DNA from: Escherichia coli
GTDB lineage: Bacteria > Pseudomonadota > Gammaproteobacteria > Enterobacterales > Enterobacteriaceae
Direction: 5' to 3' (one strand)
DNA: 64,000 bases
Assembly: GCF_001677475.2 (NCBI RefSeq)
Contig: NZ_CP015229.1
The stretch's first letter is position 1. Every line of letters starts with the position of its first letter. Positions 41,501 through 44,500 of the stretch are shown one piece after another. The position numbers were made by a program.

Positions 41501-44500
41501 TTCCGGGGCAGGTTTATACGCCGCCGCAGCTCGGGACCTATTATTATGCGTTTAACACGCAAAAAGGGCCGACGGCCGATCAGCGTGTTCGCCTGGCATT
41601 AAGTATGACGATAGATCGCCGCCTGATGACCGAAAAAGTGTTGGGGACGGGGGAAAAGCCAGCGTGGCATTTTACACCAGATGTTACTGCCGGTTTTACG
41701 CCGGAGCCTTCGCCGTTTGAACAAATGAGTCAGGAAGAACTGAATGCGCAGGCAAAAACTTTGTTGAGCGCAGCTGGTTATGGTCCGCAAAAACCGCTGA
41801 AGCTGACGCTTTTGTATAACACTTCAGAAAACCATCAAAAAATTGCGATTGCTGTAGCATCGATGTGGAAAAAGAACCTTGGCGTAGATGTTAAACTGCA
41901 AAATCAGGAATGGAAAACCTATATCGATAGCCGTAATACCGGCAATTTTGATGTTATCCGCGCCTCGTGGGTAGGGGATTATAATGAACCCTCCACTTTC
42001 CTGACATTATTAACGTCAACGCATTCTGGGAATATTTCACGCTTTAACAATCCGGCATACGACAAAGTTCTGGCCCAGGCATCGACGGAAAATACCGTTA
42101 AAGCGCGTAATGCCGATTACAATGCGGCAGAAAAAATCCTCATGGAGCAAGCACCGATTGCACCAATTTATCAATATACCAATGGACGATTAATCAAGCC
42201 ATGGCTGAAAGGTTATCCCATTAATAACCCGGAAGATGTGGCGTACAGTCGGACTATGTATATTGTGAAGCATTGATGTGATGGGAACTGGCGTTACCCT
42301 TGTGGATAACGCCAGTGATGTCTGGTTTAGCGACCCTGGTCCGGCGGTGTAATGTTATCCATATACAGCGTCTGGCTGGGGAAGGCAAAGTCCGCGCCGT
42401 GTGACTGCACAATATCGATAATCTTCAAATAAACGTCTTGCTGTGCAGCAAGCCATTCAGCCCATACCGTGGTTTTGGTAAAGCAATAAACCATAATATT
42501 CAATGAGGAGTCAGCAAACTGGTTGAAATAAACCAGTAAGGTTTGTCGCTGGTCGATGGCCGGGTGATTTTTCAGCATCTCACGTACGGCTTCGACAATA
42601 ACGCCCACTTTTGCCGCATCCTCATAACGTAAACCAATGGTCGTGGTAATGCGCCGGTTGGTCATTCGTCCTGGGTTTTCTACGCTGATCGACGAAAACA
42701 ACGAGTTCGGTACGTACAATGGACGATTATCAAAGGTCGTAATTTTGGTAATTCGCCAGCCAATCTCCGCTACTGTACCTTCGATATTTCTGTCCGGTGA
42801 ACGGATCCAGTCGCCAATACTGAAAGGACGGTCGAAATAGAGCATAATCCCGGAAAAGAAGTTACTCAGAATATCTTTACCGGCCATACCGACAGCCAGA
42901 CCACCAATACCACCAAAGGTCAGCAAGCCAGAAAGGCTCATGCCGAAATGTTCGCCATAAAGTAGAACAAGCACCACAATAATGGTGATTTTGATGATAC
43001 GCGACATAATCCGCGCACTGGTGATATCGCGACCTTTTTTAATCTGCTGTTTTTCAAACTGATTTATCAGCAGAAATAGCTTAACCGTCAGAATAACCGC
43101 AATCAGGGACGTACAGATAAAATCGATAACGCCTGGGGTGATAAATTTGAGTTTATAGTTTTCTATAACATAATTAATGATGCTACCAACAGCACTGATA
43201 ATTATGGTGTAGATTAAAAATTGCACCGCATGGAATAAAAATCCTTTTCTTTTACGATTTCCGCGGCGAAACCAAAAGCTCATCAGAATCAATGCTGCGC
43301 AGCTACCGAAAATAATGACCAGATTAAGCGCATTATTTGTAAACAGTTCAGCGATCATTGTTTTATCAGGCTCCTCCAGATAATTGTCGTCATGCCGGAA
43401 ACCCCTGGCGGGGCTATTTTACCGCGACAATTCATTCAGATCACCAATAGTCAGGGAAGGAAGTAGCAACATTAGCTAACTAATCAATGCGTTGATTGTA
43501 AATCCAGCTAAGAGGTGAGGTTTTCAGAGCAGACAACGGTGAAATGTCATGGTATTGTTACGTTTAGGTAACAAGAAATTTGTCTGCACAAGGATTACAT
43601 CATGATTATGGCGAAACTGAAGTCAGCGAAAGGGAAGAAATTTCTCTTTGGTTTGTTGGCGGTTTTCATTATTGCGGCGTCGGTTGTGACTCGCGCGACC
43701 ATCGGCGGCGTGATAGAACAGTACAATATTCCGCTGTCTGAGTGGACGACATCAATGTATGTGATTCAGTCATCAATGATTTTTGTTTATAGCCTGGTCT
43801 TTACTGTGTTGCTGGCAATCCCGTTGGGAATTTATTTCCTTGGCGGCGAAGAGCAGTAAGTAAAAAATAGGCCCGATAACTCGGGCCTTGTCAGTTATTG
43901 AAGAGTCGTTAATCGTCTTCTTCGTCATCCAGTTCAACGGGTGTCTGATACTGGTCAGGTTTAATGACCAGCAGGTCGCAGCGAAGATGATCAATCACCT
44001 GTTCCGCCGTGTTGCCGAGGAATGCTGCTGAAATACCGGTGCGTCCGACCGTGCCCAGAACCACAATCCCCGCCTGTAAATGCTCCGCCAAATAAGGAAT
44101 CACCTCTTCTGGCAGACCTTTTTCTACGTGCGTCATGTTTTCATTAATGCCGAATTTCTGCCGCAGGGCTTTCATTGCCAGCAAATGTTGCCCACGAATG
44201 GCATCGTTATAAACGCTCGGGTCAAATTCCGGCAGTTCAATCGCGATATTAATTGGCGTTACCGGATAAGCGCCAACCAGATGAACTTCGGTATGGTTGA
44301 CTTGTTCCGCCAGTTCGATCGTCTCTTTGACCAGTTTTTCATTGAGCGCATTATGGTACGGCTCTTCACTGGCGAGATTCACCGCCACCAGCGCCTTACC
44401 CCCTTCCGGCCACGGCTGGTCTTTCACCATCCACACCGGGCTTGGGCATTTGCGTAACAGATGCCAGTCCGTTGGCGTAAAAATCACCGCTTCCAGACGG

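Follow-up and report, generated by a model that had tools for sequence, protein, structure and literature searches.

An unoccupied IS5F target site between ynaI and ynaJ in a non-K-12 Escherichia coli chromosome

Does this Escherichia coli chromosome lack the IS5 copy that K-12 carries between ynaI and ynaJ, and, if so, what does its absence tell us about the strain? In this study, we addressed the question on a continuous stretch of 64 kb (the window). A preliminary description had called the ynaI-ynaJ spacer an unbroken 243 bp, named an IS5 (insH) copy at this place in K-12, and taken its absence as a sign of a non-K-12 background. The length proved exact, the two open reading frames being bounded at 43358 and 43602, and the statement on K-12 was accurate: in MG1655 (NC_000913.3) the RefSeq annotation places IS5F, an element of 1195 bp with insH4 (b1331), at 1396044-1397238, between ynaI (b1330) and ynaJ (b1332). 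The features of the locus in the window are as follows.

40642-42276, mppA, upstream neighbour of the ynaI-ynaJ pair
42327-43358, minus strand, ynaI, open reading frame of 343 amino acids, equal in length to MG1655 b1330; its matches are annotated as ynaI in RefSeq
43359-43601, uninterrupted divergent intergenic region of ynaI and ynaJ, 243 bp, with the IS5F site unoccupied
43444, plus strand, C in the window and T in MG1655, the sole K-12 difference in the reconstructed spacer
43476-43479, plus strand, CTAA, the exact unoccupied K-12 IS5F target, first unit of the tandem CTAACTAA
43602-43859, plus strand, ynaJ, open reading frame of 85 amino acids, equal in length to MG1655 b1332; its matches are annotated as ynaJ in RefSeq

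YnaI is a low-conductance mechanosensitive channel of the MscS family, and NCBIfam MscS-family models match it; ynaJ encodes a small membrane protein of the DUF2534 type. Downstream of the pair, the window continues with uspE, fnr, ogt and abgT.

Two checks had been proposed, a search for the IS5 inverted repeats and an alignment with MG1655; a terminal repeat within the interval would have told against the preliminary description. None is there. The 16-bp IS5 terminal inverted repeat GGAAGGTGCGAAYAAG was sought across all 64 kb of the window with a tolerance of three mismatches and gave no match. Neither the body of the element nor its coding sequence gave more than short chance matches to the window, whether the whole of IS5F was used in blastn (best E 0.005) or InsH4 in tblastn (best E 0.025), and none of these fell within 43359-43601.

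The alignment with MG1655 places the empty site to the base. The targets of IS5 are YTAR tetranucleotides, and each insertion creates a 4-bp duplication; CTAA/CTAG sites are also mentioned in PMC11677980. In MG1655, IS5F begins GGAAGGTGCGAACAAG and finishes CTTATTCGCACCTTCC, its left flank ends in ...TTAGCTAA, and its right flank begins with CTAACTAATC. The left flank of 121 bp and the right flank of 126 bp, less one CTAA, add up to 243 bp, and 4 bp is the only duplication length that restores this figure. When IS5F and one CTAA are removed from MG1655, the window's spacer results with one mismatch. The window reads CTAACTAA at the target, two units of CTAA, versus three in MG1655, where CTAA is followed by IS5F and then by CTAACTAA. 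Thus a YTAR tetranucleotide stands at the exact insertion coordinate, the flanks are collinear with MG1655, and the window holds no element flanked by a 4-bp YTAR target duplication. Presence or absence was decided by exact alignment; no chance statistic is applicable, since a structural fact of this kind is settled by the alignment itself.

How common the empty state is can be read from complete genomes. Of 5426 complete RefSeq E. coli genomes, 5422 matched a 643-bp query across the spacer; we counted the spacer as uninterrupted where at least 80% of the query was covered in one piece. This was so in 5055 of the 5422 (93%), including O157:H7, ATCC 25922, BL21-type and ETEC genomes, and the empty state is thus widespread across unrelated lineages. 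The left junction of K-12 IS5F (flank plus IS5) was found in 355 complete genomes and the right junction in 346. Nine genomes have the left junction without the right one, which fits IS5-mediated deletions or rearrangements beside ynaJ-uspE-fnr. About 11 further genomes, outside the uninterrupted and IS5F groups and the single genome FDAARGOS_943 considered below, matched the query non-contiguously. Among the matches listed, all 64 IS5F carriers (60 by the right junction and 4 by the left, from the total of 355) are K-12 laboratory derivatives; those named include MG1655 variants, C600, J53, DH5alpha, DH1, NCM3722, RR1, HST04, ER1709 and NEB Turbo. Published accounts concur: IS5 copy 4 of BW25113 lies at ynaI/ynaJ, at a CTAA/CTAG-type target (PMC11677980, Table 1), W3110 has been described as having "the known IS5 element b1331 to the right of ynaI" (PMC2072959), and MC4100 likewise carries IS5 between ynaI and ynaJ (PMC3149613). 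Because the named carriers, among the matches listed, are all K-12 and the literature agrees, IS5F is an old insertion confined to the K-12 lineage, which it marks; the ancestral state, and the normal one in wild E. coli, is the empty site. The unoccupied site is therefore an ordinary strain polymorphism, already known and without novelty.

We propose, with a probability of about 97%, that the 243-bp spacer is the ancestral site of a wild, non-K-12 E. coli chromosome into which IS5 never inserted, and that IS5F transposed within the K-12 lineage. There, an IS5 copy (IS5F, insH4) would have entered the CTAA equivalent to window position 43476-43479 and generated the customary duplication of 4 bp. 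It would have divided the divergent promoter region at a point upstream of both start codons, 121 bp from that of ynaI and 126 bp from that of ynaJ. The lineage of the window would never have received this insertion, and its ynaI/ynaJ control region is accordingly intact.

Three other histories could lead to the same 243 bp. A real IS at the site might have been collapsed or skipped by the assembler; short-read assemblies often treat IS copies wrongly, and the nearest relatives that we found are draft assemblies. We consider such an artefact very improbable, as a repeat will normally interrupt the contig and not be removed from it with single-base precision. Moreover, the site holds two CTAA units versus the three expected had IS5 and its duplication been skipped, no partial terminal repeat is left, and 93% of finished genomes are likewise empty at this site.

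Alternatively, the empty site may be a reversion: an IS5-family element once present at CTAACTAA in this lineage would have been lost through precise excision. One sequence fits both histories alike, since never-inserted and inserted-then-precisely-excised sites each leave one CTAA, and the motif has been struck independently by K-12 IS5F and by an ISSfl7-like element in FDAARGOS_943. Nevertheless, precise IS5 excision is rare, no scar is present, and parsimony speaks against it, with 5055 of 5422 genomes across phylogroups empty; we rate this history even lower than an assembly artefact. That IS5 never inserted, rather than being precisely excised, is something that we infer and do not show. 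Least credible of the three is a K-12 derivative from which IS5F was removed by engineering or by spontaneous precise excision: engineered IS-free K-12 strains such as MDS42 exist and scarless removal would leave exactly the window's sequence, but the SNP within the spacer, the divergence of 1.6-3.5% from MG1655 in every aligned block, the absent 14-kb ycjM-ycjW/ompG block and the presence of 7.9-kb and 3.6-kb efflux islands lacking in K-12 all stand against it, and on this divergence and these indels it is excluded.

The element of FDAARGOS_943 (NZ_CP065615.1) bears on the target itself.

43480-43482, plus strand, CTA, insertion point of an independent 915-bp ISSfl7-like element of the IS5 family in FDAARGOS_943; junction found in one genome only

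This point falls within the second unit of CTAACTAA, at a distance of 4 bp from the IS5F target of K-12. The element differs from K-12 IS5F in its length of 915 bp, its terminal repeat GGCTGTGTCCCTTAAT, its frameshifted transposase and its duplication of 2-3 bp, which is either CTA (3 bp) or TA (2 bp), depending on the reading. The two insertions share the same intergenic CTAACTAA motif, and the window has neither element. The FDAARGOS_943 genome holds about 32 copies of the ISSfl7-like element; it also has IS4-family insertions that truncate mppA and flank ogt. Two independent insertions no more than 4 bp apart, in unrelated strains, hint at a preferred target, yet two events are too few for a hot-spot claim. 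It is doubtful, if conceivable, that the tandem CTAACTAA is a recurrent IS5-family hot spot whose occupancy might alter ynaI/ynaJ expression and destabilise uspE-fnr. If this were true, wild strains such as this one might not be well represented by K-12 data on YnaI channel abundance or on how ynaJ is regulated.

As to the strain background, the absence of IS5F argues against a standard K-12 origin, because all 64 of the named junction carriers are K-12 derivatives. On its own, it is weak evidence, as 5055 of 5422 complete genomes share the empty site; it excludes K-12 and does not give the identity of the strain. When compared by local megablast with MG1655 1345000-1440000, the window gave seven collinear blocks with 96.5-98.4% identity (divergence 1.6-3.5%), none of them K-12-like, and the following large differences in gene content.

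4833-12728, island of 7.9 kb between fabI and sapF, in place of K-12 ycjD
About 30788-30875, absence of the 14-kb K-12 block ycjM-ycjW including ompG (MG1655 1370022-1384104), pspE being followed almost directly by ycjX
37499-38160, about 660 bp extra relative to K-12
52094-55695, island of 3.6 kb relative to K-12, between mcaS and smrA
52059-52874, minus strand, AraC-family regulator of the mcaS-smrA island
52968-53999, EmrA-like adaptor of the mcaS-smrA island
53996-55510, EmrB-like DHA2 pump of the mcaS-smrA island

A K-12 chromosome would be expected to show more than 99.9% identity to MG1655 over the collinear chromosome, IS5F at the ynaI/ynaJ junction, ycjD and ycjM-ycjW/ompG present, and the fabI-sapF and mcaS-smrA islands absent; the window departs from this picture on every count. 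The claim of a non-K-12 background is thus borne out by the empty site, by the identity of 96.5-98.4% to MG1655 and by the four large indels. Judged from these alignments, the call rests far more firmly on divergence than on the missing IS. Most divergent from K-12 is the puuC-pspE block (23416-30788), at 96.5%. The fabI-sapF island encodes a TetR regulator, an RND adaptor, an RND permease, a NodT-type outer-membrane factor and a Bcr/CflA MFS pump. Of the 5422 complete E. coli genomes, 2037 have this island, O157:H7 and APEC among them; both islands (7.9 and 3.6 kb) encode efflux systems together with regulators. At the extra stretch of about 660 bp, an intact open reading frame of 212 amino acids (37660-38298, minus strand) stands where MG1655 has only ymjC/ymjD fragments.

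Two smaller observations were made in the same comparison. At about 23417 of the window, 122 bp of the MG1655 puuR-puuC spacer (1362518-1362639) are missing. At about 60700-64000 lies the left end of a Rac-like prophage (intR, xisR and the rcbA/ralR region) integrated at ttcA, which runs parallel to K-12 Rac, collinear and about 98.4% identical, as far as 63662, the last 340 bp or so diverging.

Collinear core genes place the window within E. coli: identity is about 98% with MG1655 and reaches 99.0-99.7% with other complete E. coli genomes. No complete E. coli genome (n = 5426) exceeds about 99.0% identity over the 20 kb of window positions 33000-53000. The draft assembly GCA_019135675.1 (contig ABBDFQ010000011.1) is 99.989% identical over the 9.1 kb of positions 4023-13130, and the lineage of the window consequently exists in nature. 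From these matches, the window comes from a natural E. coli lineage known only from drafts and without a finished genome. A Shigella origin was considered as well and seems unlikely, every window segment that did not align to MG1655 being accounted for by non-IS genes.

An Rfam scan of 43000-44000 gave no match at E ≤ 1, and a simple sigma-70 consensus scan found no site in the spacer. Two features deserve listing.

43530-43558, plus strand, candidate ynaJ promoter recognised by eye: CAGACA, a 17-bp spacer ending in TG, and TATTGT (extended -10)
43869-43888, GC-rich hairpin from the scan, between the convergent ynaJ and uspE

The putative ynaJ promoter is a weak candidate: it scores 8 of 12, below the threshold of the sigma-70 scan. 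It lies between the IS5F site and ynaJ. The hairpin at 43869-43888 is likely a terminator. For ynaI, inspection by eye yielded no promoter; TAAAAT (43421-43416, minus strand) was tried as a candidate and set aside, as it has no -35 element at acceptable spacing. There is also a short, weak GC-rich hairpin at 43393-43410, TGCCGG...CTGGCG followed by GGGCTATTTT, 35-52 bp ahead of the start codon of ynaI. The scan marked it as resembling a plus-strand terminator, but no gene ends there on that strand, and it may be a structural element of the ynaI leader instead.

The overall importance of the empty site is very small. It is a correct and cheap marker of sequence that does not come from standard K-12. 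IS5F is a K-12 peculiarity that sits in the ynaI/ynaJ control region; to those who work on ynaI or on ynaJ regulation, the window offers this promoter region in its native, undisrupted form. In some W3110 and MG1655 stocks, ynaJ-uspE-fnr has been reported to be lost when b1331 recombines with a second IS5 located upstream of fnr (PMC2072959); the lineage of the window is without the IS5F copy that drives this loss in K-12 stocks.

Compared with known loci, the window shares with the IS5F locus of MG1655 its flanking genes, their lengths and the spacer sequence (one SNP in 243 bp once the IS and one CTAA are removed). It differs in that MG1655 has IS5 and the target duplication, and in that the window's flanks are about 1.7% divergent from K-12. 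Against complete E. coli genomes, full-length matches to the 643-bp query range from 97.5 to 99.7% identity, none identical and the best at 99.7%. With the uninterrupted spacer of most complete genomes, such as CFSAN018748, the BL21-type Nico21(DE3), O157:H7 and ATCC 25922, the organisation of the window is identical.
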